NCBI RefSeq assembly: GCF_963921235.1 | Contig: NC_086108.1 | Location: 74,774,001 to 74,838,000, forward strand | Length of the DNA: 64,000 nt | Direction of reading: 5' to 3' | Source: Mobula hypostoma | Taxonomy: Eukaryota | In this document: piece after piece, positions 35,293 to 62,719 of the stretch | How the letters are laid out: every line of letters begins with the position of its first letter | Position numbering within the stretch: the first letter of the stretch is position 1 | Notes under the pieces: generated by a model | Databases searched by the model: none | Told to the model about the DNA's origin: nothing | Seen by the model: only the letters and a program-made list of their open reading frames with translations | Program-made: the position numbers and the translations under genes

Positions 35293-38220
35293 TTGGGCTA
35301 TCAAGAAAAATGGGTAGAATATTTAATTCTTCCTTTCTACTCTTATTTAGCCAACTTACTCCAAGCTATTGGAATTTTCGTAAGTGTATGAGTCTGATCA
35401 TGCTTTCAGAGCCTGATATGCTATTTAAACTTAAGGCCTAAGAGAAAAAAATATAACACCACTGGCAAACACTCCCCTCTTCAAATCTAAAGATGCTTGA
35501 AACAATTTTTTTTCTTTACCAGCTTGGTAAATTTATCAATACTCAAGATCAGCAGTTCCCGGACTGCAGACTAGGGTTGTGAGTGCAGTTCCTCTTTAAG
35601 AAAATGAAAGCGTGGAAAGCGCACGGGGCTACAGATACAATTGAAATGCAGAGACCTTAACCCCCCCCCTCCCCCCACTCCTGACTACCCTACGGGAGAA
35701 TGACGCACAGTCTCTGAAAAATAAAACTGCTGACCTTAGAGCAAAATCGCAGTACCAGAAGGACAGCAGGGACTACTGTGTACTTTGCTTCTTGGAAACC
35801 TGGCTCATGTCTACCATTTCAGACACAGTACTGCATCCCTATGGTTTTGCTACTCTCTGTAAAGACAGGACAACTGAGTGTTTCAAAGGTAGTGGAACAG
35901 AGAATTATTTATGACTAACTCATCATACTGCACAGGCATGGCAGTTCTGCCTCAATCCTGCTCACCCGATTTGGAGCATCCAGATGTCAAGTGTTGTCCA
36001 TTCTATTTGCTGAGGGAGTTTCCTGCCATCATCCTGGTTTTGGTGTACATCCCATCTCTGGGCAACATCAGGCAAGCACTAGAGGAGTTGAGCACAGTGA
36101 TCAGCAGTCACAAAACAATGTACCTGGATTGCATCCCTAGTACTGCGGGAGATTTCAGGCAGGTTAGCTTGAAGAAGTCTTGGAATAAGTACCACCTACG
36201 TGTCACCTATGGAACTAGAGGAACCAATGCACTTGACTACTCAAGAATGCTTACCAGCCATCTCCCTCTCACACTTCGGAAAGTCCAATTATCTGGCTGT
36301 ACATCTACTTCCAGTGTATTGGCAGAGACTAAAGACTGCAGCACCAGTGATGAGGACCAAGAAGGTATGGTCAAGGGAGGCAGAGATCACTTACAGGACT
36401 GCTTTGAGTCAGTGGACTGGACAATATGCAGGGATTTATCTTTGAACCTGAATAAATATGCCATAGTTGCCACTGACTTTATCAAGCCCTGGGTGGATGA
36501 GTGTGCGTGTTTGAGAACATACTGGACATACCCAAACCAAAAGCTGTGGATGAACCAGGAGATTTGTAGTCTGCTGAGGGTTAAGTCCATGGCATTCAAG
36601 TCTGGTGATCCAGAACTATACAAGAAGTCCGGGTATGACCTATGGAAGGCTATTTTAAAAGAGAAAAAATAAGTTCGATTGAATTTAGAGATGGAATTGT
36701 GCATCTCAGCCCTGACAGGGTCTGTAGGCCATTACTTCCTACAAGGAGAAACCTAACGTCATGAATGGCTGTGATACTTCACTCCCAGATGAGCTCAACA
36801 CCTCTTATGCATGCTTTGAAATTGAGAATAAAACTACATCTATGCAAATCCCGGCAGCATCTGATGACCTTGAGATCTGTTTTTTGGAGGCTGACATCAA
36901 TACATCTTTTGATGGATGAACCCTCACAAGATGTCTGCCCCTGATGGCTGTACCTGGCAGGGAGCTGAAACCCTGTTGCAACCAACTGGCGGGAGAAATC
37001 AAGGACACCTTCCATCTCTCACTGCTGCAGTCTAAGTTTCCCACCTGCTTCAAAAGGGCAACAATCATATCAGTGTCCAAGAAGAGCAGGGTAAGCTGCC
37101 ACAACAACTATCGACCAGTCGCACTCATACCTACTGTGATGAAGTGCTTTGAGAGGCTGGTCATGGCCAGAATCTGTTCCTGCCTAAGCAAGGACCTGGA
37201 CCTGCTGCATTTTGCCTATCACCACGATGTCTACAATGGATGCCATCTCACTGGCACTCCTTATGACAATAACAGGCTGTTGTTTATTGATTATAGCTCA
37301 GTGTTCTACACAATTATATGATCAATTCTAATCAACAAGCTCCAAAACCTGGGCTTCTGTACCTCTGCAACTGGATCCTTGACACCCTCACCGGGAGACC
37401 ACAGTCTGTGTGAATCCAAAGTAACATCTCCACTTCAATGACAATCAACACTGGCACACCTCAAGGATGTGTGCGTAGCCCACCGCTCCAGTCTCTCTTC
37501 AACCACGTCTTTGTGACTAGGCACAACACCATCTATAATTTTGCCAAAGTCACAGCTATCGTTTGCAGAATCTCAGATGGTGACGAAAAGGTGTACGGGA
37601 GCGAGACAGATCAGCTGATTGAGTGGTGTTATAACAGTAACCTTGTACTCAACATCAGAAGGACCAAAGAATTATTTATGGACTTCAGGAAGAGGAAGCT
37701 GAGGGAACATACACCTGTCCTCATTGAGAGATTATCAGTTTCAAGTTTTTGGGTTTCAACATGGCTGAAGGTCTATCCTAGGCACAATGTATTGATGCAA
37801 TTACAAAGAAGGCATGAGAGTGGCTATATTTCATTAGGAATTTGAGGAGACTTGCTATGTCAGCAAAGATTCTCTCAAATTTCTACAGATGTACCATGGA
37901 GAATATTCTAACTGGTTGCATCACCATCTGCTATGGGGGAGGGATCACTGCAAGGGCTGGAAGAAACTGCAGAAAATTGCACACTCAGCCAGCTCCATCA
38001 TGGGCACTAACTTCCCCAGTTGAAGATACTTTCAAAAGACAATGCCTCAAAAATGTGACATTCATCATTAAGGGCCCCCATCACCCAGGGCATGCCCTCT
38101 TCTCATTGCTACTATCAAGGAGGAGGTACAGGAGCTTAAAGATACACCCTCAACAGTTCGGGAACAGCTTCATCCACTCCGCCATCAGAATGGACAATGA
38201 ACCCAGGTACATTACCTTAA

Positions 38221-39103
38221 GCAACACACATAAAAATTGCTGGTGAACGCAGCAGGCCAGGCAGCATCTCTAGGAAGAGGTACAGTCGACGTTTTGGGCT
38301 GAGACCCTTCGTCAGGACTAACTGAAAGAAGAGCTAGTAAGAGATTTGAAAGGGGGAGGGGGAGATCCAAAATGATAGGAGAAGACAGGAGGGAGAGAGA
38401 TGGAGCCAAGAGCTGGACAGTTGATTGGCAAAGGGGATACGAGAGGGTCATGGGACAGGAGGCCTAGGGAGAAAGAAAGGGGGAGGGGGGAAGCTCAGAG
38501 GATGGGCAAGGGGTATAGTGAGAGGGACAGAGGGAGAAAAAGGAGAGAGAGAAAAAGGATGTGTGTATAAAAATAAATAACGGATGGGGTATGAGGGGGA
38601 GGTGGGGCATTAGCGGAAGTTTGAGAAGTCAATGTTCAGGCCATCAGGTTGGAGGCTACCCAGACGGAATATAAGGTGTTGTTCCTCCAACCTGAGTGTG
38701 GCTTCATCTTTACAGTAGAGGAGGCCCTGGATAGACATATCAGAATGGGAATGGGATGTGGAATTAAAATGTGTGGCCACTGGGTGATCCTGCTTTCTCC
38801 GGCGGACAGAACGTAGATGTTCAGCGAAATGATCTCCCAGACTGCATCGGGTCTCGCCAATATATAGAAGGCCACATCAGGAGCACTGGACGCAGTATAT
38901 CACCCCAGCCGACTCACAGGTGAAGTGTTTACTAGTAAGAGATAATCTCTTACTAGCTCTTCTTTCAGTTAGTCCTGACGAAGGGTCTCATCCCGAAACG
39001 TCGACTGTACCTCTTCCTAGAGATGCTGCCTGGCTTGCTGCGTTCACCAGCGACTTTTATGTGTGCTGCTTGAAATTCCAGCATCTGCAGACTTCCTCGT
39101 GTT
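38221..39103 (-). mobile_element. 5'-truncated Penelope-like element with an inverted second pLTR
   Basis: GIY-YIG C-terminal part on the minus strand (about 38610-38928); pLTRs in opposite orientation; 13-bp TSD tacattaccttaa (38208-38220 / 39104-39116). Confidence 0.93.
38971..39006 (+). ncRNA. Minimal type I hammerhead ribozyme motif with an intact core
   Basis: AGTC-CTGACGA-a-GGG(tctcat)CCC-GAAA-CG-TC-GACT. Stem I is AGTC/GACT, stem II is GGG/CCC, a palindromic ACGT replaces stem III, and the predicted cut is after C39002. Confidence 0.8.
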
Positions 39104-42913: not shown

Positions 42914-45407
42914 CAACATACATCAAAGTTGCTGGTGAACGCAGCAGGCCAAGCAGCATCTATAGGAAGAGGCGCAGTCGACGTTTCAGGCCAAGACCCT
43001 TTGTCAGGACTAACTGAAGGAAGAGTGAGTAAGGGATTTGAAGGCTGGAGGGGGAGGGGGAGATGCAGAATGATAGGAGAAGACAGGAGGGGGAGGGATA
43101 GAGCCGAGAGCTGGACAGGTGATAGGCAAAAGGGGATACGAGAGGATCATGGGACAGGAGGTCCGGGAAGAAAGACAAGGGGGGGGGTGACCCAGAGGAT
43201 GGGCAAGAGGTATATTCAGAGGGACAGAGGGAGAAAAAGGAGAGTGAGAAAAAGGAGAGTGAGAGAAAGAATGTGTGCATAAAAATGAGTAACAGATGGG
43301 GTACGAGGGGGAGGTGGGGCCTTAGCGGAAGTTAGAGAAGTCGATGTTCATGCCATCAGGTTGGAGACTACCCAGACGGAATATAAGGTGTTGTTCCTCC
43401 AACCTGAGTGTGGCTTCATCTTTACAGTAGAGGAGGCCGTGGATAGACATGTCAGAATGGGAATGGGATGTGGAATTAAAATGTGTGGCCACTGGGAGAT
43501 CCTGCTTTCTCTGGCAGACAGAGCGTAGATGTTCAGCAAAGTGGTCTCCCAGTCTGCGTCGGGTCTCACCAATATATAAAAGGCCACATCGGGAGCACCG
43601 GACGCAGTATATCACCCCAGTCGACTCACAGGTGAAGTGACGCCTCACCTGGAAGGACTGTTTGGGGCCCTGAATGGTGGTAAGGGAGGAAGTGTAAGGG
43701 CATGTGTAGCACTTGTTCCGCTTACACGGATAAGTGCCAGGAGGGAGATCAGTGGGCAGGGATGGGGGGGATGAATGGACAAGGGAGTTGTGTAGGGAGC
43801 GATCCCTGTGGAATGCAGAGGGGGGGGGAGGGAAAGATGTGCTTAGTGGTGGGATCCCGTTGGAGGTGGCGGAAGTTACGGAGAATAATATGTTGGACCC
43901 GGAGGCTGGTGGGGTGGTAGGTGAGGACCAGGGGAACCCTATTCCTAGTGGGGTGGTGGGAGGATGGAGTGAGAGCAGATGTACGTGAAATGGGGGAGAT
44001 GCGTTTAAGAGCAGAGTTGATAGTGGAGGAAGGGAAGCCCCTTTCTTTAAAAAAGGAAGACATCTCCCTCGTCCTAGAATGAAAAGCCTCATCCTGAGAG
44101 CAGATGCGGCGGAGACGGAGGAATTGCGAGAAGGGGATGGCGTTTTTGCAAGAGACAGGGTGAGAAGAGGAATAGTCCAGATAGCTGTGAGAGTCAGTAG
44201 GCTTATAGTAGACATCAGTGGATCAGCTGTCTCCAGAGACAGAGACAGAAAGATCTAGAAAGGGGAGGGAGGTGTCGGAAATGGACCAGGTAAACTTGAG
44301 GGCAGGGTGAAAGTTGGAGGCAAAGTTAATAAAGTCAATGAGTTCTGCATGCGTGCAGGAAGCAGCGCCAATGCAGTCGTCGATGTAGCGAAGGAAAAGT
44401 GGGGGACAGATACCAGAATAGGCACAGAACATAGATTGTTCCACAAAGCCAACAAAAAGGCAGGCATAGCTAGGACCCATACGGGTGCCCATAGCTACAC
44501 CTTTAGTTTGGAGGAAATGGGAGGAGCCAAAGGAGAAATTATTAAGAGTAAGGACTAATTCCGCTAGACGGAGCAGAGTGGTGGTAGAGGGGAACTGATT
44601 AGGTCTGGAATCCAAAAAGAAGCATAGAGCTTTGAGACCTTCCTGATGGGGGATAGAAGTATATAAGGACTGGACATCCATGGTGAAATTAAAGCGGTGG
44701 GGGTCAGGGAACTTAAAATCATCGAAAAGTTTAAGAGCGTGAGAAGTGTCACGAACATAGGTCGGAAGGGATTGAACAAGGGGTGATAAAACAGTGTCGA
44801 GGTATGCAGGAATGAGTTCGGTGGGGCAGGAGCAAGCTGAGACAATAGGTCGGCCAGGACAGGCAGGTTTGTGGATCTTGGGTAGGAAGTAGAAACGGGA
44901 AGTGTGGGGTGTGGGAACTATAAGGTTGGTAGCAGTGGATGGGAGATCCCCTGAGCGGATAAAGTCGGTGATGGTGTGGGAGACAATGGCCTGGTGCTCC
45001 TTAGTGGGGTCATGATCGAGGGGTAAATAAGAGGAGGTATCCGCGAGTTGTTGCTGCGCTTCGGCAAGGTAGAGGTCAGTACGCCAGACTACAACAGCAC
45101 CCAGCTTATCAGCGGGTTTAATAATAAGGTTAGGATTAGTGCGGAGGGAGTGGAGAGCAGAGCGTTCCGAAGGAGTGAGGTTGGAATGGGAACCAGGTGC
45201 GGTGAAGTCGAGACGGTTGATGTCCCGTCGGCAGTTGGCAATAAAGAGATCCAGAGCAGGCAGAAGACCAGAGCGGGGTGTCCATGAAGAAGAGGAGGGT
45301 TGAAGACGGGAGAAGCGGTCATCGGTGGGGGTGGAAGAGTCCTGGCTGAAGAAGTAGGCTCGGAGACGGAGACGGCGGAAGAAAAGTTCCGCATCGTGGA
45401 AAAGTTC
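42914..45407 (-). mobile_element. Young 5'-truncated Penelope-like element (RT plus GIY-YIG endonuclease plus pLTR)
   Basis: Perfect 15-bp TSD cactgctaattttag (42899-42913 / 45408-45422); pLTR at about 42914-43035. Confidence 0.96.
43322..45400 (-). pseudogene. Penelope RT-GIY-YIG ORF with one premature stop (44223) and one frameshift (poly-G run near 43820)
   Basis: KPADK, LPKIHK...GRPIVS, DVQSLYT, GVAMG and RYIDD; CKRNKCYTC linker; VIYCVRCSRCGLLYIGET...EH and LEEQHLI...GMN. Confidence 0.95.
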
Positions 45408-48053
45408 CACTGCTAATTTTAGTTGAAGAGGCAACAAAAAGCTATTTTTATTAAAGGTGGAAATGAATCTCAGGGTTGTATATGGGAGATGTATATGTAG
45501 TTTGATAATAAATTTACTTTGAACTCTTGGGTTAGAAAAATAGAGTATTTAGGCTTGGGCATAGTGATGGTGATGGATGAATTTACAGATAGACACAATA
45601 ATGAGGTGATGGCTGAATGTAAGTAAGCAGATGAGTTTTTAAAAAAATAACTTTTGGAAGAGCATCACTTCAATTTGCATGTGTCTGATTCTTTCTGAAG
45701 AAAAAATTTTTTTGTTGTTGATGTCATTGAATCCATAGTTTGGTGTAACAGGGTTGGGAAATTGAAATATGAAACTAAAATTGGCTAGTTAATTGCATTC
45801 AAAATGATTGACATGGACAACTCAATTACTATTTTCACTGCATGTTATGCTAATAGGACTGGAATTTCCAATCCTTATTCTATATAATAACTATATAATA
45901 TTTACAGTAATTTCCAATCTACTGAATGCTTTCTCAATCCTATACTACATAGAAACTTCAATGATAGAGCCATAATTGTTCCGGGTAATTTCTGCTGTTA
46001 TACAAAAGGATGCGTTGGAATTTCATAACAGCTTTGACAATATCAGTGCAGAAAAATAACCTAATATTTTGCTTGAAATTTTAACTTTATTTTACAGATG
46101 CTGGTGGAGCTGTTGATCTATTTATTTGCGTCTGTCTTCAGTGTCGTTTACTATCTTTTAAAAATATATTAGGCTCTTTAAATGATCCATTAAGAACAAA
46201 GACAAAAAAAAATGTAATATGAGAAAAACATTAAACTTCTTGTGTTCCATGACTTAAGTCAAAAGATATTAACTGCAGACCACATCTCTACAAGTAACTG
46301 TCATGATCTGCTGTAAAAAGTTAAGCCTTCCCCAACCATTATAATGTACCAATAATAGGAGCTAACATCATTGGTAAGATATAATTGGATGATACTTTGT
46401 CACTTGCACTTTTGTGAGGTTAATATGACCCACCATAGTTAACTTTATTTCAAAATTATCATCAGTCCCTGTGATATGTAATATCGTTAATTATGAGAAT
46501 CTCAGTACCTTAGTACTCAAGGCTGTGATACATCTACACTCATGTAGCAAATAGATTATCATTGCTTAGGACTCATTTTGGAAAGCTCTGCAGGAATAAT
46601 TAAAGAGAAAAAAAAATTCGCTTGGTCTGATTCTAGGCAAATATTATAATCCACCGAGAAAATTTAGCCTTAATTAAAATTGCAGGCTAATTTTTAACAT
46701 TTTTGTGGCCACTCATTATTGTTGAAACATTGTTGGAAATTCCAGGGCTGACAGACCACCCATTGTTTAGAAGATTCGGATCTAGCAATCTTAGCTTATT
46801 TCACAGATGTGTTGGCATTGTTTTTTAAAGCAAAATCTTGATCTAATCAGCTCTCTGCGGTAGATAGGCAGATTATGCATGAAAATCTATTTCTTTGTTA
46901 TGGGGTGATTACTCTGACAGAGATCATGTACTCCATTGTTTCTTTGGTAGTCCACACACAGTCGATACCCTTAACAAGAGTCAAAAGTAGTATTTGAGAC
47001 ATTAGTGGATAATGTTTTGTGGTTTGGATATCTGTGATAGAGCATGGTAAATTTTTTGGGAAAATATAACCTGCCTCAACTTTACATTTCAATGATGATT
47101 TATCTTGCAGCCTCTCTACGTTAATTTCCTGTTAAAAAAACTTCATTGTTGCTTGTCAATTAGGCGAACTGGAACATTTTTATTAATTTAAAGATGTTAT
47201 ATATCTACTTCAAGCATTATTGCATGATTATGAATTACTTATGGCCACATTTTGCCATCGTAAGCATGTGTTTCTAATTGTCTATTTTTAACTGTCATAT
47301 TTTGTTAGATTGGTATTATTGGTATCTCGTTAAGGTATCTAATTGTCATTTGCTTTCATAGTAATTTTATGTGGACTTATTAATATTCTGAACCTGATAT
47401 TGAACCAGATATAATAGACCATACAGGAAATTCTCCCAGGGAAAGCAGAAGAAAACAATGAAGGTAGAGGTTTCCTTATACATTATTGAAATGTAAGCAA
47501 CATGAGTGCAACTGGGTGCATAATTATAACTTAGTAGAATGTTGAGCAAAATTTATTTGTTAAGCACCATGGCCAGCATTTATTATATTCTCAAACATAA
47601 ATGTACTTATGTTTTACAGATAAAATCATGTTTTAAGCAATTCTCTTATCCATTTGTTTTGGTATTGCTAGATTAAGTTATCTGCATCATTGTATTGATG
47701 TTCTCTGCTTAGGACTGTTTCCTTCTTTTCCACAGCCAATTACTTAACTTTCCTTTAGTTGTTTGCAAAGCTGAGTTGTCTAATGAAATAGGAAATGAAT
47801 ACAGAAAAGAATGAGAAAAAATCTGGAATCCAACTGGCCAAATTAGTGCATCTAGGCCATTTTTGCCTTCAAGTAGCCACCTAATGTTCTTCAGAAATTT
47901 TACAGCATTTTAGTCATTCTGTGTTCTATTCTCAACTCAATGCTATTCCAGGAAAGGCATTCCACAAATTCTCACCTTCCTCCTTAAAACATTAAATGTG
48001 AAATTCTGTAATTTGAGGACAAGAAGATCTGAGGACAATTCTGTGATTTGAGG

Positions 48054-49640: not shown

Positions 49641-52344
49641 TAATGAAAACCCCATGACTATCGTAACATTGCCCTTCTGACATGTATTTTATACTTTATA
49701 CTTTATTGTCACCAAACAATTTATACTAGAGGGTACAATCATTACAGTGATATTTGATTTTGCTCTTTGTGCTCCCTGGAGTACAAATCGATAGTAAATA
49801 TTAAAAATTTAAATTATAAATCATAAATAGAAAATAGAAAAGGGAAAGTAAGGTAGTGCAAAAAAACTGAGAGGCAGGTCTGGATACTTGGAGGGTATGG
49901 CCCAGATCCTGGTCATTTTCTATCTACTGTTGTAATTTGTAGATCACATTTTATGATTGTTTGGAGGTCTATATATAACTCCCTTCAGGGTCTTTTTACC
50001 CTTGCTCCACCCACAATGATCCTACGCCTTAGTTGCAGGAGGGCCAGTTAATCGTTCTGGGGTTCTGTTGTTTTAGCTGTGATAGAGTGGGTGGGATTAA
50101 AAGGGGTGTGTTAGCATTACTAGTTAGGGAAAATGTCACTACAGTGCTCAGACAGGACAAACTGGAGAACTCATCTAATGAGGCTGAGAAATAAGAAAGG
50201 TATGACCACTTTAACGGAATTATATTATAGACGATTTAACAGTCTGCAGGACTTACAGGAGCAAATTGGTAGAGAGATTGCAGACATTTACAAGAAACAT
50301 AAGGTTGTGAAAGTAGGTGATTAACTTTCTGCATATTAACTGGGGCCCCCATACTGTAAAAGGGCTGAATGGGAAAGAGTTTGACAATGTGTTTTAGGAA
50401 ATTTTACTTCATCAGTACATAGAAGCCCCAACTAGAGAGAGTGCGATACAAGATCTCCTATTAGAGAATGAGACAGGGCAGGTAACAGAGGTTTGTGTAG
50501 GGGAACACTTTGCATCCAGTGATAATAATGTCATTAGTTTTAAGGTAATTATGGAAAAGGATAGGTTTGGTCTTCAGGTTGACATTCAAAATTAGAGAAA
50601 GGCCAGCTTTGATGGTATCAGAAAGGATCTGGGATGGGATAGGTCGTAAAGGTGTACTTGGTAAGTGGGAGGCCTTCAGAAGAGAAATCTTGAGTGTACA
50701 GATTTTTAATGTTCCTGTCAAAATAAAAGGCAAGGATAACAGATTTAGGAACCTTGGTTTTCAAGAGGTATTGAGGCTCTGGTTAAGAAAACAAAGGAGC
50801 TGAGTAGCAGGTATAGGAAGTTAGGAGCAAATGAGGTTCTTGAGGAGTATAAGAGATGCAAGAGAACACTTGAGAAGGAAATCAGGAGGGCAAACAGAAG
50901 GCATGAGGTTGCTGTAGTAGACAGGGTGAAGGAGAATTATGCACCACTTGTGCTGGCAGCTCATTTCACACTCTCACGACCCTCAGAGAGGAGAATGGAT
51001 GAGAGACTTCTATAGATATATTAAGAGCAAAAGGATAGTAAGGGACAAATTGATTTCTCTGGGAGTTCCGAGGTAATCTATGCATGGAGCTGAAAGAAAT
51101 GGGGGAAACTTTAAATAGCTTCTTTTGCATCTGCATTCACTTGGGAGACAGACACAGCATCTACAGAAGCAGCAATGAAGTCATGGAACCAGTACAGACT
51201 GCAGATGGGGGGTGTTTGCCGTCTTGAGGCAAATTAAGGTGGATAAATCCCCAGGGGCTGACAAGGTGTTCCCTTGGACCCTGTAGGAGGCTAGTGCAGA
51301 AATTGCAGGTGCCCTTGCAGAGGTATTTAAAATATCATTAGCCATGGGTGAGGTGCCAGAGGATTGAAGAATAGCTAATGCTTTTCCACTGTTTAAGAAA
51401 GGGTCTATGTATAATCCAGGAAATTATAGGTCACTGAGCCAGATATCAATAGTGGGATGGTTATTGGAAAGTATTCTAAGGGACTCGATATAAAAGTATT
51501 TGGATAGATAGAGACTTGGAATAGTCAACATGGCTTTGTGTGTGGTAGATTGTATCTAACCTTATAGAGTTTTTTGAGAAAGTTACCAAGAAAGTTGATG
51601 TAGGCAAGGCAGTGAATATTGTCTACATGGGCTTCAGCAAGGCTGTTGACAAGGTCCCACATGGGAAGTTAGTCAAGGAGGTTCAGTCGCTTGGCATTCA
51701 AGATGAGGTAGTAAATAGGATTGGTCATTGGCATCACAGAAGAAGCCAGAGATTGGTAGTAGATGATTGCCTCTGTCTGGCGGCCTGTGACTAGTGGTGT
51801 GCCACAGGGATCGGTTCTGCATTCATTGTTATTTGTCATCTAACACAACGATTGGGATGATAATGTGGTAAAATGGATCAGTAAATTTGAGAATGACTCC
51901 AAGATTGGGGGTGTAGTGAACTGCAAGGAAGACTATCAAAGCTTGCAGTGGGATCTGGACCAGCTGGAAAAATGGGCTGAAAATGTCAGATGGAATTTAG
52001 TGCAGACCTGTGTGATGTGTTACACTTTGGGAGGACCATCCAGGGTAGGTCGTATATGGTGAGTGGTAGGGCACTGAAGAGTGTGGTTTAAAAAAAAAAG
52101 GGATCTGAGAATGCAGATCTGAAATTCTTTGTAAGTGGCAACACAGGTAGATAGGGTCATAAAGAAACCTTTTGGCATATTGGCTTTCATAAATCAATGT
52201 ACAGGAGTTGGAATGTTATATTGAAATTATATTAGATGGGCTGGTGAGGCCTAATTTTGCCACGGTCCTGGCCGTCCCTCCCGTTTGTTCCTCATGATCT
52301 CCTAATTCCCTTTTCCCCCTGTTTCTCCTGCTCCCGTCCGTCTC

Positions 52345-52520
52345 TCTCTCTGTTTGTGTGTGTGTCTGTGTGTTTCTGTGTGTGTGTGTGCATGCGTGTG
52401 TGCGTCTGTGTGTGTATGTGTGTGTGTGTCTGTGTGTGCGCGTGGGTGTGTGTATGTGTCTCTATGTGTGTGTGTCTCTCTCTCTCTGTGTATGTGTCTG
52501 TGTGTGTGTGTGTGTGTGAG
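52345..52520. repeat. Compound (TG)n microsatellite inside the 5' LTR
   Basis: Direct inspection; absent from the 3' LTR. Confidence 0.95.
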
Positions 52521-53480
52521 AGAGCACGGTTGGCGTGGCGTTCCTTTTGTTCTCCTGGGCTTCCTGATTGCGGCGCACCTAAATCTCATCTAACCTGTGT
52601 TACGTAACCGGCAACAATGAATATTAATCGAGACAGGTTTTATGAAAACAACCAAACATTTATTAAACACATAAGCGATAAGGGGAAAAAAAACCACAAA
52701 GGAAAACTTTAACCGGAGGTTAAACAGGTACGCAGCCGTTCATCAACTCCACTCGGCTCTGGTTCCTAAAGTGTTAAATGCGGAAACTAGTTCTTAAAGC
52801 GATACAGTCAGATATAGTTCTTAAAGCGATAACTTCAAAAGTCCAACAGTTTTACGCATTCAATTGGGAGAGACTTCTCTGGAGTAGGATTTCTTCACCG
52901 ACGCACCTTTACTGCCGGTTCTGTCCATAGGATTCCCAATGCCAAAAATAAACAGTTTAAATCAACTGACCTTAAATTGTTTAGAGAGAGAGAGAGCCTT
53001 TGTGCATGAACTCATTGCACCATTGCAAGAGTTATCTCAATGCAGGTTCTCTTCAACGAAGACTCAATAAGGTCGATCCTTTATTAAACTGCCAAACAAT
53101 GCCGACTTTTCTCGATCCTTCACTTCGATGAATTCTTCACTCTCCCATCAAAACTGTCGGAATTGAGTAAATTGGCACTTCCAGCCACAAATTTCCAGTT
53201 CAAATACAATATCTTGTAAGAGAACGCACCTTCCGTTTTAAAAATGAAACTGTGTCACAAAAACAAACACGCAACAGAACCAGAGGCACAACATGTTCTA
53301 CCTGGAAATCTACAAACTCAAAAACCCACTGCGTCACCTGAGTCGACTCTTATATAGTCACAGGGCGCATGTCATCACGTGACCTCACATCGGCGGGAAA
53401 ATCACATCAGGTGACCTCCAAAAGACCATTACATCATTTTCACAGAAAAAAAACAGATCTCCCTCCAAAAGCATGTAATA

Positions 53481-53490
53481 CCTCCCTCCA
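53481..53490 (-). promoter_or_regulatory. Polypurine tract of the Gmr1-type element
   Basis: Minus strand (T)n-GGAGGGAGG directly abuts the 3' LTR. Confidence 0.8.
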
Positions 53491-53737
53491 AAAAAAAAAT
53501 TTTGGTCTCTTGAAGAACAAAAATTTAACAATTTATACAAAAAAAATACAAAGGTATAAAATTTACAAAATATACAATATATACAATCTTATCTTTCAGC
53601 CCTTTACAAACTAATGTACAGTAGGAGTGTTACAAATGATAAAATATCACTCCAAAAAAAAACAAATTTTCATTGTACATTTAACATCTAGACAACCAAT
53701 CAGCGATCACATTATCTTTACCCTTGATATGAGTGAC

Positions 53738-55276
53738 TTAAATATTGTACTCCTTTATATGACACAACTGTGTTGTCTTTCTCCTATCTGGGGTTTTTAC
53801 CACATAATCCACCTCATTTACTTTAGATTTAATCTCATAAGGACCATGGAATTTGGCTTGTAATGGGTTTGTTTGCACTGGGAAAAGAACCAACACCTTA
53901 TCTCCAGGCTTAAATGACCTCATCCTAGCTTCCTTATTATACCACGTCTTCATCTTCTCTTGAGCTAACTTTAAATTTTCTTTGGCCAAACTACAAGCTT
54001 TGAACAATCTGTCTTTAAATTTCAAAACATAATCTAACAAACTAGTGTGTACTTCTTTATTAATCCACTGTTCCTTCAACAAAGCCAAAGGTCCTCGAAC
54101 TCTATGTCCAAACACAAGTTCAAAAGGACTAAAACCTAACAATTCTTGTACTGCCTCACTGACTGCAAAAAGTAGTAAATGTATACCTTCATCCCAATCC
54201 TTCTCATTTTCTACACAATATGTCCTCATCGTAGTTTTTAGTGTAGAACGAAATCTCTCCAAGGCTCCTTGTGATTCTGGATGATAGGCTGAGGAAATAA
54301 TCTGCTTTGCTCCCAGTTTATAAACTATCTGCTGAAACAACCCAGACATAAAATTACTTCCTTGATCTGATTGTATTTCCTTAGGCAACCCAAAATAAGT
54401 GAAGAATTTTATAAGAGCTTTTCTCACAGTTTTGGCTGTTATATTCCTAAGAGGTACTGCCTCTGGAAACTTAGATGCTGTGCACATAATAGTTAATAAA
54501 TATTGATGTTCAGTTTTAGTTTTTGGCAAAGGACCTACACAGTCTACAATGATTTTTGAAAACGGCTCACCAAATACTGGAATTGGTTGCAGTGGAGCCA
54601 CTGGAGTAACCTGATTAGGTTTACCAACGATTTGACATGTATGACACGGTCTACAAAATGTTGCCACATCTTGTCTTAAACTAGGCCAATAAAAATGTTT
54701 AGAAACTTTGTTCATAGTTTTTTTTACCCCTAAATGACCACCCAAAGGAATACTATGAGCCATAGTCAAAATCTCATTTCGGTAAATTTTAGGAACAACA
54801 ACCTGATGATTAACTTCCCATTCCTCACTAGCAAGAATTGTAGGCGATCTCCACTTTCTCATTAATACCCCCTTTTCAAAATAATATCCAACTGGTACTT
54901 TTCCAATTTCACTATCTGGAAGAGCTTGTTCTTTTAATTTAACTATCTCAGGATCCCTACCCTGCTCTGCTATCATCTCCTTCCGAGATAAAGACAAATC
55001 TTCCTGGTCAAACTTACCACCAAAATCCTGATCAAATAAGGTAGGTAAGAAAGTTTCTGATACATCCTCAAAATTCAAATCTTGATTTGAACTGTCATGG
55101 GTAACAACCTCATCCTTTACATCAGTCTTTTTAGCCATAGCTCTTGTTACGACACAGGAAGAATCTGTGTTAGAATCCCTCTGTGGTTCCTCAGAATTTG
55201 AATTTATTGTCAAATGCACAGGAAAAACTTGTCCACCTGCTGAATCATTCCCTAACAAAAGAGAAACACCATTCAC
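53738..55276 (-). CDS. Gmr1 integrase ORF, uninterrupted for about 510 codons
   Basis: HHCC (AHSIPLGGHLG...CHTC); DDE (IVDCVGP, SDQGSNF, ESQGALE); GPY module (FHGPYEI). Confidence 0.9.
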   Translation of the reverse strand: MNGVSLLLGNDSAGGQVFPVHLTINSNSEEPQRDSNTDSSCVVTRAMAKKTDVKDEVVTHDSSNQDLNFEDVSETFLPTLFDQDFGGKFDQEDLSLSRKEMIAEQGRDPEIVKLKEQALPDSEIGKVPVGYYFEKGVLMRKWRSPTILASEEWEVNHQVVVPKIYRNEILTMAHSIPLGGHLGVKKTMNKVSKHFYWPSLRQDVATFCRPCHTCQIVGKPNQVTPVAPLQPIPVFGEPFSKIIVDCVGPLPKTKTEHQYLLTIMCTASKFPEAVPLRNITAKTVRKALIKFFTYFGLPKEIQSDQGSNFMSGLFQQIVYKLGAKQIISSAYHPESQGALERFRSTLKTTMRTYCVENEKDWDEGIHLLLFAVSEAVQELLGFSPFELVFGHRVRGPLALLKEQWINKEVHTSLLDYVLKFKDRLFKACSLAKENLKLAQEKMKTWYNKEARMRSFKPGDKVLVLFPVQTNPLQAKFHGPYEIKSKVNEVDYVVKTPDRRKTTQLCHIKEYNI

Positions 55277-55299
55277 AGATTAACTGGATTGTAGTCCTA

Positions 55300-56717
55300 C
55301 TTTAACAACCCCTGTAACTAATCCTGACCTTAAATTTACTCTATGTAAATGTACTAGCATAAGGCACTCCCTACTCCTCTTATATAATTTACCTCACCAA
55401 TGTCAGACTCATCACTAAACCTTAACACACTATCTAATATTAGTGATTGTGAAGCTCCAGTATCTCTAAGTATCCTTATCGGTACTGCATTGGATCCTTC
55501 TTTCAAGGATACAAATCCTTCTGTTATAAAAGCCTCATATCCCTTCTTAACTTGGTCAGACTCTGACACATCTTCATTAATATTTTCTAAACCCTGTGGT
55601 TTTACAGGTTTTCCAATATGCTGCACACAAGCATCTGGGGCCACTTTTTTCTCTTTCCGTTTCAATCAGAAGCAGTTAGCCACTATGTCCAGGTTTCTTA
55701 CAATAATTAGAAATAATACCAAAATGTCTTTCCTTCACGTCTCCCTTCATCCTTACTTTTCTCACTAACTTCAAGTTTAATGTCTGATTTACCTTGACTC
55801 TCCGTGCTAGTTTTCCTTTTAAAAAATTTTACCTGGAGAAAATGTATTCTTGTGAATTAAAACATACTCATCAACCAATTTAGCAATCTCCTGCAATGTA
55901 GCAGTGTCCCGCTCATTTTAGTATGTTCTCACTTCAACAGGAATGCTTCTTTTAAATTCCTCCTGCAAAATCAGCTCTTTCAATTTATTATACTCCCCAT
56001 TCACATTTTTAGAGGAAACCCATCTCTCAAAACATATAGATTTCTCATAGGCAAATTCCACATAAGTTTTTTCCACCGATTTTCTTTAAACTTCTAAATC
56101 TTTCTCTATACACTTCCAGAACCATCTCGTATGCGTTTAATATATTCTCTTTAACAATATCATAATCCGGTGCTTGCTCAGCATTTAAAGCTGTATAAAC
56201 TTGTTGTGCCTTGCCTTTAATTACACTTTGTAACATCACTGGCCATTGGTCCTTCGGCCACTTTAAACTCAGAGCAACTGTTTTGAAATGCTGAAAATAT
56301 GCATCCATATCAGTTTCATTAAATGGAGGAGCCAAAACGACCTCATGACTAGCAATGAATTGTTTTGTAGAACCAGAAGACTAATTCCCAGACCTCATTT
56401 TCTCCATCTCTAGCTCAAATTTCCTCTGGTTTTCAGCTTCTCTTTCTCTCATTTCCACTTTAAATTTTTCAAACTTTAACTGTTCAAGATGCAACTGCTT
56501 TTCCAGATTACTCATTGGAAACTTCTCTAACACCTCCTCCTCAAAACATTCCAAATTAATATAATGTTCAGCAATTTTCCTTTGTATGAAAACCTTGGTA
56601 GAATTTCTTGTAATCCCTTTAATATCCAAACTCTTATCAATCTCCAATACCACAGGTTTTCTCGCATTCTCTAAAAATCCCGAGTCGGGTGTCTTCAAAA
56701 ACTCGTCAATATCCATT
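55300..56717 (-). pseudogene. Gmr1 gag (with SCAN-like capsid CTD) and aspartic protease, disrupted
   Basis: PPFNETDMDAYFQHF...LKWPKDQW; SCAN-like LKELILQEEFKRSIPVEVRTY (about 55920-55985); protease ILRDTGASQSL. Confidence 0.85.
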
Positions 56718-56820
56718 GTTGCCGAATACAACACACACACCAATCAAACCAAAAAAAAATTGGGTATTCCCTTTCCAAATCAAAATGGCAATTACCAGCA
56801 CTTAAACTCAAAATCGGAAC

Positions 56821-56838
56821 ATCCCGGACAAGCCCCCA
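56821..56838 (-). promoter_or_regulatory. Primer binding site, tRNA-Pro type
   Basis: Minus strand TGGGGGCTTGTCCGGGAT is a 17/18 match to the canonical tRNA-Pro PBS TGGGGGCTCGTCCGGGAT, 8 nt inside the 5' LTR boundary. Confidence 0.9.
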
Positions 56839-58036
56839 CAAAATTATGTTATGTAACCGGCAACAATGAATATTAATCGAGACAGGTTTTATGAAAACAA
56901 CCAAACATTTATTAAACACATAAGTGATAAGGGAAAAAAAAAACACAAAGGAAAACTTTAACCGGAGGTTAAACAGGTATGCAGCCGTTCATCAACTCCA
57001 CTCGGCTCTGGTTCTTAAAGCGTTAAATGCGGAAACTAGTTCTTAAAACGATACAGTCAGATATAGTTCTTAAAGCGATAACTTCAAAAGTCCAACAGTT
57101 TTACGCATTCAATTAGGAGAGACTTCTCTGGAGTAGGATTTCTTCACCAACGCACCTTTACTGCTGGTTCTGTCCACAGGATTCCCGATGCCGAAAATAA
57201 ACAGTTTAAATCAACTGACCTTAAATTGTTTAGAGAGAGAGAGCCTTTGTGCATGAACTCATTGCGCCATTGCAAGAGTTATCTCAATGCAGGTTCTCTT
57301 CAATGAAGACTCAATAAGGTCGATCCTTTATTAAACTGCCAAACAATGCCGACTTCTCTCGATCCTTCACTTCGATGAATTCTTCACTCTCCCACCAAAA
57401 CTGTCGGAATTGAGTAAATTGGCACTTCCAGCCACAAATTTCCAGTTCAAATACCATATCTTGTAAGAGAACGCACCTTCCGTTTTAAAAATGAAACTGC
57501 ATCACAAAAACAAACACGCAACAGAAACGGAGGCACAACACGTTCTACCTGGAAATCTACAAACTCAAAAACTAACTGCGTCACCTGAGTCGACTCTTAT
57601 ATAGTCACAGGGCGCATGTCATCATGTGACCTCACATCAGCGGGAAAATCACATCAGGTGACCTCCAAAAGACCATTACATCACTTTCACAAGAAAAAAC
57701 AGATCTCCTTGAGCATGTAACACCTGCAGCATAAATACCTCAGCTTTCCATCTGCTCATCGCCAGATCATTGTTTCAGCCAGTGTAGTTATTCACGTTCC
57801 TGGTCACTTAGGATTATGTATTCTAAGTTTTGTTTCAGCACTGTGGTTTGCCTGTGTTAGCTCTGTCTCTCCATGTCAAGAGAAGCATTGTCTGCCGCCT
57901 GCCTTTCCATTCATCCTGCTGTTTGCCGTTCAGCTCCAGCCACGCTCACACCCTCGTCTGCATCCCAACTCTATCTCTGTGCCAGTGTCCTACGTTTGGG
58001 TTCACCCGTTCTCTACAACAGAACGATCTGACCACC

Positions 58037-59715
58037 ACGGACCCAGTGGACACAAACGCCATCCAACAACCCCTCGCCAGCCAGGGTTCCCTACTGGGAC
58101 AGCACGACCATCTCCTCCGGGAGGTCATGGAGAATCTCCGTTCCTTGTCTGCTCACGTCATGCAGATCGGTGACCAGGTGGACCCTATCTCCACTCATAT
58201 CACTCAACCCACTCCTGGAACCCAGCCCAGACCGCCTGTAGTGGCAACCCCCCATGCGTCACCAACACCCCCGCCCAGAGAGCCTCACGTCCCTGAGCCG
58301 GAGAACTATGCTGGAGATTTGGGGAAGTGCTGGGGTTTCCTCCTTCAGTGCTCCCTGGTGTTTGAACAGCAGTCGTCAATCTACTCCACAGATAAGTCTA
58401 AAATTGCTTATGTCATGGGGTTGCTACAGGGGAGTGCATTAGCGTGGGCCACAGCAGTTTGGGACAACCAACTTAATATCTGCTCCTCTTTCACCAGTTT
58501 CATCTCAGAGATGAGAAAAAGCTTCGATCACCCCATCCGTGGTAAAGACACCACCAAGCATCTATTCGTTCTCTGCCAGGGCTCCCGCAGTGTTGCTAAA
58601 TATTCAGTGGAGTTCCGGACGTTAGCAGCCGACTCGGGGTGGAACGATGAGTCACTCCAGGAGATTTTTCATAATGGACTCAACGACCTGGTGAAGGATG
58701 AGATGGCGGCGAGAGACGACTCCGACAGCCTGGATTCTCTGATGTCCCTGGCCACCAGGTTGGGCAATCACCTCCGGGAGTGCCGTAGAGAGAGAACTGG
58801 TCGTCCACCACCTTTGGCCACTTCTCAGCTCCCTTTTCCGCCTCCCACCAGAACAAGCCTCTCTCCTCCTCCTGCACCCTGAGTAGCTCCCAGCCCTGCC
58901 GTTTCCACCACCCCGGGAGAGGAACCCACGCAGCTGGGGTGGAACCACCTTACTCCCACAGAACGACTCCGGAGAACGAGAGCGGGCGAGTGCCTATATT
59001 ACGGTCAGTCCGGCCACTTCCTTGCCACCTGTGCCCTTCGGCCAGGAAGGGAGGGCTCACCAGCAGCAGGGGGGACCCTGGTGAGCCAGACAACCTTCCC
59101 TTTCGTCCCCTGACCCCGGATGCAGCTTCAAGCCACTTTGTGTCACAACCAACAGTCCTTGCCTCTGCTAGCACTAGTGGACTCCGGCGCAGAGGAAACT
59201 TCATGGATGAAAACCTAGCCCTCCAAGCCGGTATTTTTCATGAGCCTCTGTGTACCCTGCTGGACGCCAGGGTGCTAGGCAGTAGACTCCTGGCCTGGGT
59301 CACGCAGTGCACGGAACCCCCGCTTCTCCTTCTCTGTGGAAACCTTCGGGAACAGGTACGATTCAAACTAATCTCCTCTCCTCAGGCCCCTTTAGTTCTC
59401 GGCCACCCTTGGCTAAGCCGTCATAACCCCCACACCGACTGGTCCACCAGGAAGATAGTCAGCTGGAGCTCATCTCGTTCTGCCATTCCTCTTGCCTGCA
59501 ATCAGCCCTTCCCCCAGTGAAGGTCACCGCGACCTTGTCCGCCTCTGAACCCCCTGACTTGTCCACAGTCCCCGTATAATATCATGATCTTGGAGAGGTG
59601 CTCAGTAAGCAACGGGTCCTTTCTCTGCCTCCACATTGCCCTTACGATTGCCGATTGACTTTCTCCCCGGTGCCTCATTACCCACCAGTCGGCTGTATAG
59701 CCTGTCCTATCCAGA
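58037..59715 (+). pseudogene. Sushi-type gag (PEG10/RTL-like capsid, zinc knuckle), protease and pre-RT linker
   Basis: Start codon appears as ACG-GAC-CCA (58037); PENYAGDLGKCWGFLLQCSLVF; QGSRSVAKYSVEFRTLA; CLYYGQSGHFLATC (about 58990-59032); LVDSGA (about 59174); [21 protein letters not shown]. Confidence 0.9.
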
Positions 59716-59719
59716 AAGC

Positions 59720-60707
59720 ATGCAAGCAAAGTCCAGAGGTAAAGCACAAGGTGGTGAGAAAGGATCTGAAAAAGGTAATTTTGAAACAACTCAGTCATGT
59801 TCTAAGGCTGAAGTACCAGATCTGCTTTGTAATGAGTAATTCGAAGAGGAGATCAAGTTGCCAGCTGCTTTATCCAAGCCTAAAACAGATCATGAAGACG
59901 AACAAAGCAGAGACAAGAGTAATAAGCTGAAAAATGTTGCAGAGTATGTGGAGGAGGTGGAACTGACCAAAAGTAATGAAATACAAGAGAGTCATAAAGC
60001 AGAGTACGATCAGTACAGACCCAAAGCTGACCTGCATACAGATATTAAAAATGAAGAAATTGTAGAAGGGAAAAAAGATATTGTACATTTCGAGTTAAAG
60101 GAATGGCTTTTAGGAGAAAATGAAACAAATAGTACAGCAGAAAGATCTGAAAATACATTCTCAAAGTCAAGAGAAAAATTTGAAAATGATTAGTCTGATA
60201 ATGAAGGAACTGATATAGAAAATTCCCAGTTGTATTTAAAAGAAAGCAGACTGGTTACTCAGGAAGTTGCACACGCTTCTCCAGGAAACGTGGTGCAAAT
60301 TGAAAATTTGATAAAATCTGAAGACAAATTAGAGGAGAAATCTGCTGTAGTGGATAAACCTGTTGAAGCCACACCAGCTCAAGCACAAGAGGAGGAACAT
60401 CCAACACCATCGCAAGAGAAGACTACAAGGGTTGAAGATAAAGCAAGAAACCTGACCAGTGATGCAAGTAGCCAGAATAAACCAACCACTCGTGCAGCTA
60501 AGAAAGTAAGCAGTCCTGAGCATTTGTCTGTAACTGAGCAAGAAAAGTGTTCACTGACTTCCACAAAAGAGAAACCAACAACTGATTTAAAGTCGGGAAA
60601 ATCTCCAGCACCAGTATCAGTTACAGGATCAAGAAATCAACCATCTGCTGTGATTAAACAAGGGCGTAAAAGAGAAGCAAGTCCAGAATGCAAAAGATGA
60701 TAACATA
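59720..60707 (+). pseudogene. Captured host-like coding fragment (E/K/S-rich, disordered); BOD1L1 C-terminus tentatively suggested
   Basis: ORFs 59636-59839, 59858-60193 and 60230-60700 share one frame (about 325 codons, two internal stops). The segment is strongly A-rich against the C-rich element and has no TE motifs. Confidence 0.7.
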
Positions 60708-60710
60708 AAA

Positions 60711-60860
60711 CTCAAGCTACCCAGATCCATGTGCATTCATCCCACGTTCCACGTCTCCCAATTGAAACCTGTATCTGTCAGCCCTTGGTGCCCTCCTGCC
60801 GAACTCCCTCCACCCGCCTGGGTTGTCGACAATCCAGGCAAACCCAAGCCTGGAGACTCC
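60711..60860 (+). pseudogene. Integrase C-terminal remnant of the sushi-type element
   Basis: [20 protein letters not shown] motif. Confidence 0.85.
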
Positions 60861-62719
60861 CGTTGGGGGGGGGTGGGGGGTGGTTACTGTCCTGGTCCCG
60901 GCCATCCAGCTTTCCATCCGCTCATCGCCAGTGTGGTGATTCACGTTCCTGGCCGCTTAGGATTGTGCATTCTAAGTTTTGTTTCAGCACTGTGGTTTGC
61001 CTGTGTTAACTCTGTCTCTCCGTGTCAAGAGAAGCATTGTCTGCCGCCTGCCTTTCTGTTCATCCTCCTGTTTGCCGTTCAGCTCCAGCCACGCTCACAC
61101 CATCGTCTGCATCCCAACTCTAGCTCTGTGCTAGTGTCCTGCGTTTGGGTTCACCCATTCTTTGCAACAAATTTGGAGTATCATGTGCAATTTTGGTCAC
61201 CTACCTACAGGAAAGGTGCAAATACGATTGAAAGAATGCAGAGAAAATTTACAAGGATGTTACTGGGACTTGAGGACCTGAGTTATAGGGAAAATTTGAA
61301 TAGATTTATTTTCTTTATTCCCTAGAATGGAGAATGGAGAAGATTGAGGGGAGATTTGTTGGAGGTATAAAAATTATGAGGGGTATAGATAGGGCAAATG
61401 CCAGCAGACATTTTCCATTGAGTGAGACTGCAAGTAGAAGTCAGGATTAAGCGTGAAAATGTTTAAGTGGAACATGAGGGGGAGCTTCTTCCCTGAGAAG
61501 GTGATGAGAATGTAAAACAAGCTGTCAGCACAAGTGGTGGATGCAGGTTTGATTTCAACATTTAAAAAAAAATTGGATAGGTATATGGTGGGAAGGTTAT
61601 GAAGGGCTATGGCAGATTAATGGTTCAGTACAGGATAGATAGGCTGAAAGGCCTTTTTCTGTTCTGTAGTGTTCAATGACTCTATGACCAGGAGGTTAGA
61701 TTGTGTGGCTGGAACCCTAATCTTCTGTGCATCTGACATATTGAATAACAATTTGAAAACTAGAGTACTTCCAGTGATTCTTCCCTTTCCAAATACTTAG
61801 GCTCAAATTTCTTTCCGGGTATCAGCATCATGTCTTTGCAGGATTCCAGCTTTTCCCCTTTCATTTATGTCAACTCATGTGTCTCAGCCATTTGAAGAGG
61901 AGTCAGCACTCATCTCCATTCGTAGCTGACATCTCAGCTTTAATCCATCACCAAGGTTCTGCTCTGATGCACTTCCAGTTACTCATGGAAAGTTGAGGGC
62001 GTTCAATCTAAATCTGAGCCTGGATCTGTCAGTCTGGTGAATTTGCCTCTTTAAAAATGTTATGCAGATTGACAAAACAAAGTGAAAAATACCAAAAACA
62101 ATGTGGCAGAAATTGATGGGAATTGTGCTCAATTTTTGAGTAAAGTCACAGCTGTAAAACACACTGGTTTACCACCGGGGCAGCTGGTGCCTGATATGTG
62201 TTATATATGTGCTGTCTTTGCTCTATGGAGTCTTAAGTCAGAAGCTTCTTCATTGCTTATTGTCAACTCCAAAACTTTTACCACTGTTGGATGGTGTTTG
62301 TCAGGATTAACACCACATTCACAGAGCAACTGCCAGCAGGAGGTTCATATTGAGGAGAAGTGGATCAGGTTGTGCCTTTTTTCAACTGAAGACTGAAAGG
62401 AAAGATACCCTCAACTTTGGAGTTGCTGGAACCAAGAAAAGGAGATTTCTGAAAATTATGATGCCTATAAAAGAAGATGCTGAGAATGCATAGCAAATGC
62501 AAAATTTCAGCAGAGTCACTATATCGTGAAGTTTGTCAGTAATCTTTCTCTGCACTGCATTTGTTACTGGTACAGTACACCTAAAAGTTTAATTGAATTT
62601 GCTGTCCTCAGCTAATGCAGTCTATGTTTCATATCCAAGTAAAATAGTACATTATACAGAGCAAAGATTATCAGTGCTGATTTTTAAACTGTATTCTGAA
62701 TTAGTTAAGAAAACAGCAA

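Follow-up and report, generated by a model that had tools for sequence, protein, structure and literature searches.

Introduction

Retroviral transduction of cellular oncogenes brings host coding sequence into a retroelement. Capture is also described for an endogenous element, HERV-K, which took up FAM8A1 (PMC5131818). In the LTR-mediated retroposition reported for animals, the internal ORFs of an LTR element are partly replaced by a partial spliced mRNA, the switch points show microsimilarity (median 6 bp), and the insert carries neither poly-A nor a target site duplication (TSD). Multi-gene chimeras, such as the mouse 'Super' retrocopy from four genes, and secondary retroposition of the non-autonomous products are described as well (Tan et al. 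2016, Genome Res, PMC5131818; cited from extracts, as are the other sources). Maize Bs1 is a non-autonomous LTR element with pieces of three host genes, each captured separately (PMC13317346, PMC5131818), and it is reported to be a transcribed and translated chimeric gene (PMC13317346). Veju TRIM and BARE-2 are trans-mobilised, internally deleted and mosaic by template switching (PMC13317346). For cartilaginous fishes, the extracts of a Greenland shark preprint mention retrogenes flanked by LINEs or LTRs (10.1101/2024.09.09.611499), and some of these might be of the same kind as the captures described here. Among the records listed by a search of openly accessible literature, none reported BOD1L1 capture or gene-carrying LTR families in sharks or rays.

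Here we analyse a 64,000-nt stretch of the Mobula hypostoma genome (the window), in which a first-pass annotation had proposed that an LTR retrotransposon captured a host mRNA. The capture reaches further than that annotation: the family to which the window copy belongs numbers at least 72 loci and has taken up ROCK1, CCDC93 and CUL1 as well.

Results

Architecture of the element in the window

The window contains a chimeric Ty3/gypsy element of the chromodomain type at positions 52258–61169, with the 5-bp TSD AATTT on both sides (Table 1). The first part of its 5' LTR, which resumes at 57727, aligns with the 3' LTR. The gag carries ACG at the start codon and a stop at 58880, ahead of a decayed zinc knuckle. 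The protease of the window copy gave no Pfam match, and its homologue in Mobula birostris gave a weak match to Asp_protease_2 (E 0.0097). Stops and frameshifts interrupt the pol frame upstream of the 5' junction, and therefore no fusion protein is possible from the window copy. The integrase tail matches SH3_Tf2-1 with E 5.6e-6, under Pfam's cut-off.

The in-frame passage from the pol linker, with SLSYPE at its end, into the insert, described in the first-pass annotation, was confirmed over 326 codons (59720–60697, with TAA at 59837 and TAG at 60191), but two further stops, TGA at 60698 and TAA at 60701, lie within the range that it had given. The integrase tail does follow the insert, but in another frame, and only the 5' junction is in phase.

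Table 1. Features of the chimeric element and its flanks, in window coordinates.
Feature	Position	Strand	Details
Left TSD AATTT	52253..52257	+	Identical to 61170-61174
5' LTR, first part	52258..52597	+	Starts TG; contains TG microsatellite; interrupted by nested element
Nested, unrelated younger LTR element in 5' LTR	52598..57722	-	4-bp TSD CCTG; LTRs 97% alike
5' LTR, second part	57727..58020	+	Ends CA; 92.6% identity to 60927-61169 over 243 nt
gag	58038..59070	+	Pfam: Retrotrans_gag E 5e-14, DUF4939 E 1e-9, Ty3_capsid E 1.5e-7
Decayed, frameshifted protease region (LVDSGA motif) and pre-RT linker	59071..59713	+	
5' switch point	59714..59718	+	GAAAG, present in host mRNA and element alike; in phase
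BOD1L1 exon A, part (aa 1240-1445)	59719..60331	+	89.7% to C5:89736670-89737288
Internal deletion joint, exon A/exon D	60332..60340	+	9-nt repeat of host mRNA; in phase
BOD1L1 exon D	60341..60447	+	Without its downstream 806-nt GT-AG intron
BOD1L1 exon E	60448..60627	+	95.8%; without its downstream 1103-nt GT-AG intron
BOD1L1 last coding exon F	60628..60705	+	Stops about 8 codons ahead of host stop
3' switch point	60706..60716	+	Host and integrase agree at 8/11 letters; out of phase
Integrase tail, end of SH3 domain	60717..60864	+	Chromodomain of relatives deleted here
G-rich tract, polypurine-tract position	60865..60887	+	Adjoins 3' LTR; read from sequence
3' LTR	60888..61169	+	TG...CA; shorter than 5' LTR
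Right TSD AATTT	61170..61174	+	

The element nested in the 5' LTR contains a long integrase frame together with a gag of SCAN-like type; as no RT was found between its ends, it is itself non-autonomous. Its protease-integrase order and 4-bp TSD recall Gmr1-like elements, a label that we assume, and it is no part of the BOD1L1 capture. Other repeats also occupy the window. A long near-open RT frame followed by a CxxC-rich frame (RVT_1 E 0.0028), with direct and inverted terminal repeats, lies at 43322–45548 on the minus strand and near 38200–39070, and is presumably Penelope-like. A Tc1/Sleeping Beauty-like transposase remnant with inverted repeats occupies 30300–32200 (HTH_SB E 6e-13), and a decayed gypsy integrase fragment of another family, with weak H2C2 and SH3 matches, occupies 5400–6800 on the minus strand. 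The 64-kb window holds no tRNA gene.

The insert derives from a spliced BOD1L1 mRNA

When the insert was compared with longer proteins, all seven matches were to cartilaginous-fish BOD1L1 (best E 4e-139; E 2e-138 to a ray BOD1L1). The identity is 77–78% to the myliobatiform proteins (Hypanus and Mobula) and 61% to that of Pristis, which bears out the tentative naming of BOD1L1 in the first-pass annotation. At the nucleotide level, the insert is 92% identical to the host gene over 978 nt. A genome search gave 58 matches, and scoring covered 40 of 68 candidates; 30 loci were cut out, 29 of them inside the same LTR element and one, the single intron-containing locus, being the host gene. This gene (L018 on C5) is identical over 876 aa to the NCBI protein P0003 of M. 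hypostoma.

The corresponding stretch of host BOD1L1 is divided by five GT-AG introns of 668, 16714, 143, 806 and 1103 nt. Five long copies (L036, L038–L041) have all six exons, A–F, joined over about 1.7 kb; thus all five introns are missing from the long copies, and two are missing from the window copy. Because the introns of the host gene are missing in the copies, the source was spliced BOD1L1 mRNA; a parent gene with the segment spread over several exons is what the first-pass annotation had named as the sign of such a capture. The window copy is itself internally deleted and consists of part of exon A followed by D, E and F, joining BOD1L1 aa 1240–1445 to 1678–1800 (P0003 numbering). Cryptic splicing was ruled out as the cause of this exon A/D deletion: the upstream break lacks a GT, and the 9-nt repeat spans it. 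Shg1, the only known folded domain of BOD1L1 (aa 15–110), lies outside the insert. The junction microhomology that the first-pass annotation had advised looking for is present at both outer joints (Table 1). Together with both LTRs, the spliced-mRNA origin, the ORF replacement, the microsimilarity and the lack of poly-A and TSD at the insert assign the locus to the LTR-mediated retrocopy type.

The insert replaces the central part of pol

Comparison with related loci revealed what the insert has displaced. Of the 30 loci that match the linker best, 21 go on directly into RT and nine into BOD1L1 from the identical letter, which shows that the insert is not a normal accessory ORF. For the integrase tail, integrase precedes in five of the 30 best loci and BOD1L1 in 25. 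The two landmarks are 2.30–2.37 kb apart in 12 of 18 pol-bearing relatives with both of them; the reading as a replacement rather than an insertion was correct, but the missing part of pol amounts to about 2.3–2.4 kb and not to several kilobases. RT, RNase H and integrase domains occupy this gap, in decayed form, in all three relatives scanned, and against the relatives the window copy has lost about 2.33 kb of RT-RNase H-integrase.

The relatives have the order gag-PR-RT-RH-IN, and the best solved-structure match of their RT is Ty3 RT (E 1e-62). A chromodomain (PF00385; E 1e-11 in L115, 3e-10 in L039, weak in L122) stands at the end of the relatives and of one long copy, and is deleted in the window copy. 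Judged by these domains, the element is placed in the chromodomain clade of Ty3/gypsy; we take it to be of the 'sushi' type, a label that DUF4939 and the chromodomain back.

A family of mosaic elements carrying pieces of four host genes

Searched as a pattern, the 28 nt spanning the 3' joint recur at 41 loci, the reversed control at none, which answers in the affirmative the earlier question of whether the chimera had amplified. The union of our searches gave at least 72 loci on 22 contigs, a lower bound with at most 40 candidates scored per search. The 46 mapped stretches comprise nested deletion subfamilies and one group with gag-protease exchanged for other sequence. Sister subfamilies carry spliced pieces of ROCK1 (E 7e-19 against a ROCK1 fragment of solved structure), CCDC93 (Pfam E 2.5e-27) and CUL1 (E 2e-63). 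The host exons found for these pieces, four of CUL1 (C5), four of CCDC93 (C18) and one of ROCK1 (C1), are intron-flanked, and the copies read past their GT or AG borders. The homology at the gag-ROCK1 joint is 2 nt only. The BOD1L1, ROCK1, CCDC93 and CUL1 pieces are in sense orientation in all four cases. A protein search with the ROCK1-CCDC93 subfamily (108 matches) retrieved CCDC93 family members, none of them named from a ray.

Some members of the family lack BOD1L1. The smallest, L177 and L178, have about 300 nt between the LTRs, and this internal part is mostly host exon sequence (ROCK1, CCDC93, BOD1L1). Short matches covering the same ROCK1-CCDC93 span as in these TRIM-sized elements were also observed at C59:31.53 Mb, C96:9.015 Mb, C52:42.53 Mb and C2:233.88 Mb. 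Pieces of the family's own LTR lie between host-gene fragments inside the element in L146 (3920–4060) and L157 (4070–4450).

Distinct 5-bp TSDs occur at the LTR ends of the window copy, L039, L041, L049, L139, L146 and L149 (the scan also yields chance pairs, and those cited are the pairs at LTR ends), indicating separate integrations for at least these seven. Dispersed pol-less copies with their own TSDs thus stand beside pol-bearing relatives, as in a non-autonomous LTR family. Three loci, L136 (C21:143.62 Mb), L168 (C9:45.96 Mb) and L172 (C2:50.55 Mb), are tandem LTR-internal-LTR-internal-LTR arrays. Copies on the same contig have gag-protease sequence in common in L041/L139 (C1), L038/L135 (C2), L048/L149/L134/L136 (C21) and L044/L045 (C52); their inserts differ, L044/L045 excepted, and the TSDs of L041 and L139 differ. 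This sharing suggests ectopic gene conversion over 0.1–7 Mb. Since neighbours share gag sequence and three loci are tandem, the total of 72 may include a few local duplicates or converted copies.

The window copy has a helper-type backbone

In a tree of 44 gag-protease rows, the window copy groups with 11 pol-bearing copies (97/98). A single origin of the chimeric gag-protease region, with the 26 chimeric rows as one clade, was rejected (p-AU 0.0005); because the junctions are identical, we read this non-monophyly as recombination with helpers. At diagnostic sites, the window copy is helper-like at 10/12 in each LTR, 22/29 in gag and 8/11 in the protease-linker region, and chimera-like at 3/3 in the tail. 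Because the pol-bearing relatives were chosen by likeness to the window linker, the gag-protease result carries a bias to which the LTR sites are less subject. The window copy is a recombinant with a helper-type backbone; most simply, the cargo would have moved onto that backbone when the two RNAs were co-packaged.

Age and species range

The LTR pairs of the chimeric copies differ by a median K2P of 0.118 (range 0.058–0.172; 38 of 62 stretches gave a pair; CpG sites kept), and those of the pol-bearing relatives by 0.092 (14 of 19). Several NCBI models from other rays contain the chimera. In M. birostris, P0009 agrees with the window copy at the 5', deletion and 3' joints, and XP_072133820 is modelled as a 433-aa protease-BOD1L1-integrase-tail protein. 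In Hemitrygon akajei, P0011 has the same deletion joint after gag sequence. This exon A/D joint, at which about 232 codons are missing, is identical to that of the window copy in both P0011 and P0009. The isoform models P0010, P0012 and P0013 of M. birostris and H. akajei exit the BOD1L1 insert into LTR-like sequence, a possible sign that the cargo is spliced to the 3' LTR. The 23 runs listed included no holder recorded as RNA, a result that does not bear on expression. Among contigs of four putative RNA runs, X19 crosses the 5' joint, X8 the exon A/D joint, and X17 and X20 the 3' joint.

The age was further assessed at residues that distinguish mobulid from dasyatid BOD1L1, with Pristis used for polarisation. 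The five long copies have the ancestral residue at 14–19 of 19–21 Mobula-derived sites and at 12–14 of 15–16 dasyatid-derived sites, and the window copy has it at 11/13 and 9/12, respectively. On these residues and the deletion joint shared with H. akajei, the chimera is dated as older than the split between Mobulidae and Dasyatidae. The ancestral residues, the shared deletion joint and the insert identities together would place the capture and the first deletion on the myliobatiform stem. That stem is probably Cretaceous.

Proposed mechanism and alternative explanations

We hold it to be very probable that a spliced BOD1L1 mRNA was captured by template switching and then amplified as non-coding cargo in a helper-dependent element. 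In an early myliobatiform ray, a chromodomain-type Ty3/gypsy retrotransposon would have co-packaged the spliced mRNA; the RT would have quit the element RNA within the integrase tail, continued on the mRNA for about 1.7 kb and rejoined the element just ahead of the RT region. Both switches would have used short homologies; the structure is present in the copies, and from it we infer the switching itself. The product would have retained the LTRs and the purine tract, with RT, RNase H and integrase gone, and it would therefore have moved only with the enzymes of intact relatives. Amplification as non-coding cargo would then have followed, and later switches would have produced the nested deletions, the exchange of backbone with helper RNAs and the joining to spliced ROCK1, CCDC93 and CUL1 pieces. 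TRIM-sized elements, mostly of host sequence, would be the end point. The imperfect 3' homology, the 2-nt homology at the gag-ROCK1 joint and the excess of in-phase junctions described below speak against this explanation. All copies examined are decayed, and no intact helper was seen, the three relatives translated being all broken.

The phase of the junctions bears on an alternative that we judge unlikely, namely that recombinants spread only if ribosomes could read through them, whatever the amino acids, the RNA being selected for an open frame through escape from nonsense-mediated decay or translation-coupled packaging. A hand tally made post hoc, with the chromodomain deletion and the CCDC93 to exon D joint of L049 set aside, puts 18 of 27 junctions in phase where about 12 are expected (p about 0.014). 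By class, these are 8/10 retro-host (p about 0.007), 8/11 host-host (not significant) and 2/6 retro-retro junctions, with a null taken from identical k-mers, which are in phase in 0.30–0.40 of retro-host cases and, for k-mers of at least four letters, in 0.45–0.69 of host-host cases; the host-host null stands at 0.5–0.65. Such a filter would also fit one subfamily in which two frameshifting deletions jointly restore the phase of the gag start with ROCK1-CCDC93, as well as the somewhat rare shared stops in the BOD1L1 insert (2/162 vs 25/531, p 0.06). However, the gag start in the phase-restored subfamily is TTG and not ATG in 5/6 copies (6/7 with L156), many copies have in common deletions that shift the frame inside the first 100 nt of gag, and shared stops are enriched in the CUL1 pieces (6/70 vs 4/180, p 0.03). 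Shared small indels show no significant excess of multiples of three (5/13 vs 15/80, p 0.14). The in-phase excess is unexplained, and pure neutrality does not predict it. A broader proposal, which we likewise regard as unlikely, is that the ray chromodomain-type gypsy is a serial exon-collecting vector, the vertebrate LTR counterpart of Pack-MULEs, in which a filter acting on the RNA keeps each new host-derived junction in phase irrespective of protein function. If true, it would expose a translation-linked need of retrotransposon RNA, either decay escape or packaging, and the families would be a natural record of the germline mRNAs co-packaged in ancient virus-like particles.

End-joining repair also produces microhomology joints. 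In an origin at the DNA level, microhomology-mediated repair or gene conversion would have introduced a LINE-made processed BOD1L1 copy or a free cDNA into a genomic element, which retrotransposition amplified only afterwards, and the LINE RT remnants in the window and the conversion signs among neighbouring copies are compatible with such a course. We consider this origin improbable: the insert has no poly-A, 3' UTR or TSD and ends ahead of the host stop codon, no free-standing BOD1L1 retrocopy is among the 30 loci cut out, and the four genes are all in sense, as RNA co-packaging predicts. The same structure is credited to template switching in the extracts of Tan et al. (2016, PMC5131818).

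Selection was assessed by comparing private with shared changes as (N+stop):S, with CpG sites left out and the frame taken from the host gene or the window gag. The ratios are 402:129 private vs 94:27 shared in the BOD1L1 insert (53 copies, p 0.72), 189:66 vs 55:21 in the gag of BOD1L1 carriers (25 copies, p 0.77) and 137:43 vs 25:9 in the CUL1 pieces (23 copies, p 0.83). The positive control, the gag of 18 pol-bearing relatives, gave 240:81 vs 37:45 (p 9e-7), indicating strong purifying selection on shared changes. This test thus detected no purifying selection in the BOD1L1 insert, the CUL1 pieces or the chimeric gag, and in these parts the family does not have the character of a Bs1-like functional gene. 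As the chimeric gag is neutral whereas the helper gag is constrained, the chimera would have borrowed Gag as well as Pol; with neither insert nor gag under purifying selection, it was a passenger moved in trans.

These neutral ratios make it very improbable that the capture owes its persistence to a useful protein from a Gag/protease-BOD1L1 fusion or from a single domesticated copy, an idea to which the in-phase 5' junction, the 433-aa model XP_072133820 and the 268-codon open frame of L141 lend some appeal. L141 is the best match of the M. birostris model in this genome, and on that match we presume the two to be orthologous. The two are 94.8% alike, less than host BOD1L1 between M. hypostoma and M. 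birostris (97.8%), and L141 is therefore not unusually conserved. Furthermore, the insert excludes Shg1, and 7 of 49 copies of it are without stops, three of these spanning 24 aa or less. Finally, an assembly artefact or a chance low-complexity similarity, suggested by the E/K/S-rich composition of the insert, has a negligible probability given the 92% match of the insert to host BOD1L1 DNA along 978 nt, the 41 junction copies, the protein records in two other species and the contigs of independent runs that bridge the joints.

Discussion

The capture mechanism itself is already known from the cited extracts on animal LTR-mediated retroposition (Tan et al. 2016) and maize Bs1; what is new relative to them is the family scale and the four-gene mosaic. 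Known captures are mostly single young loci. In the ray, a single vertebrate genome preserves the whole life history of a captured sequence, from the first capture through amplification, nested deletions, the exchange of backbones with helpers and the joining of three further genes to decay to TRIM size. It supplies many dated template-switch junctions on which rules of homology and phase can be tested, and shared insertions are possible markers for myliobatiform phylogeny. Ray RefSeq annotates such copies as 'uncharacterized proteins' (P0009–P0013), which could be mistaken for gene duplications.

Comparison with retroviral transduction and the HERV-K capture of FAM8A1, as far as the extracts describe them, shows that both they and the ray family are defective and helper-dependent, with a spliced cellular insert in phase with a retroelement ORF. 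In contrast to retroviral transduction, the captured protein of the ray is not under selection; no env was noticed in its element. Bs1, as portrayed in the extracts, is likewise non-autonomous and multi-gene; the ray family differs in having no sign of protein-level selection, in holding four genes and in its vertebrate host. The closest likeness is to the type described in the extracts of Tan et al. (2016), with which the ray family shares ORF replacement, microsimilarity, inserts without poly-A or TSD, multi-gene chimeras and secondary spread, whereas the ray lineage adds at least 72 loci, many amplified subfamilies, helper-backbone exchange, an age preceding the family split and a cartilaginous-fish host. 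Like the TRIM and other non-autonomous LTR derivatives covered by the cited extracts, the ray family is mosaic and internally deleted, and its smallest members have about 300 nt between the LTRs; unlike them, the interior of these smallest members is mostly host exons, and the full deletion series from the gag-bearing form is visible.
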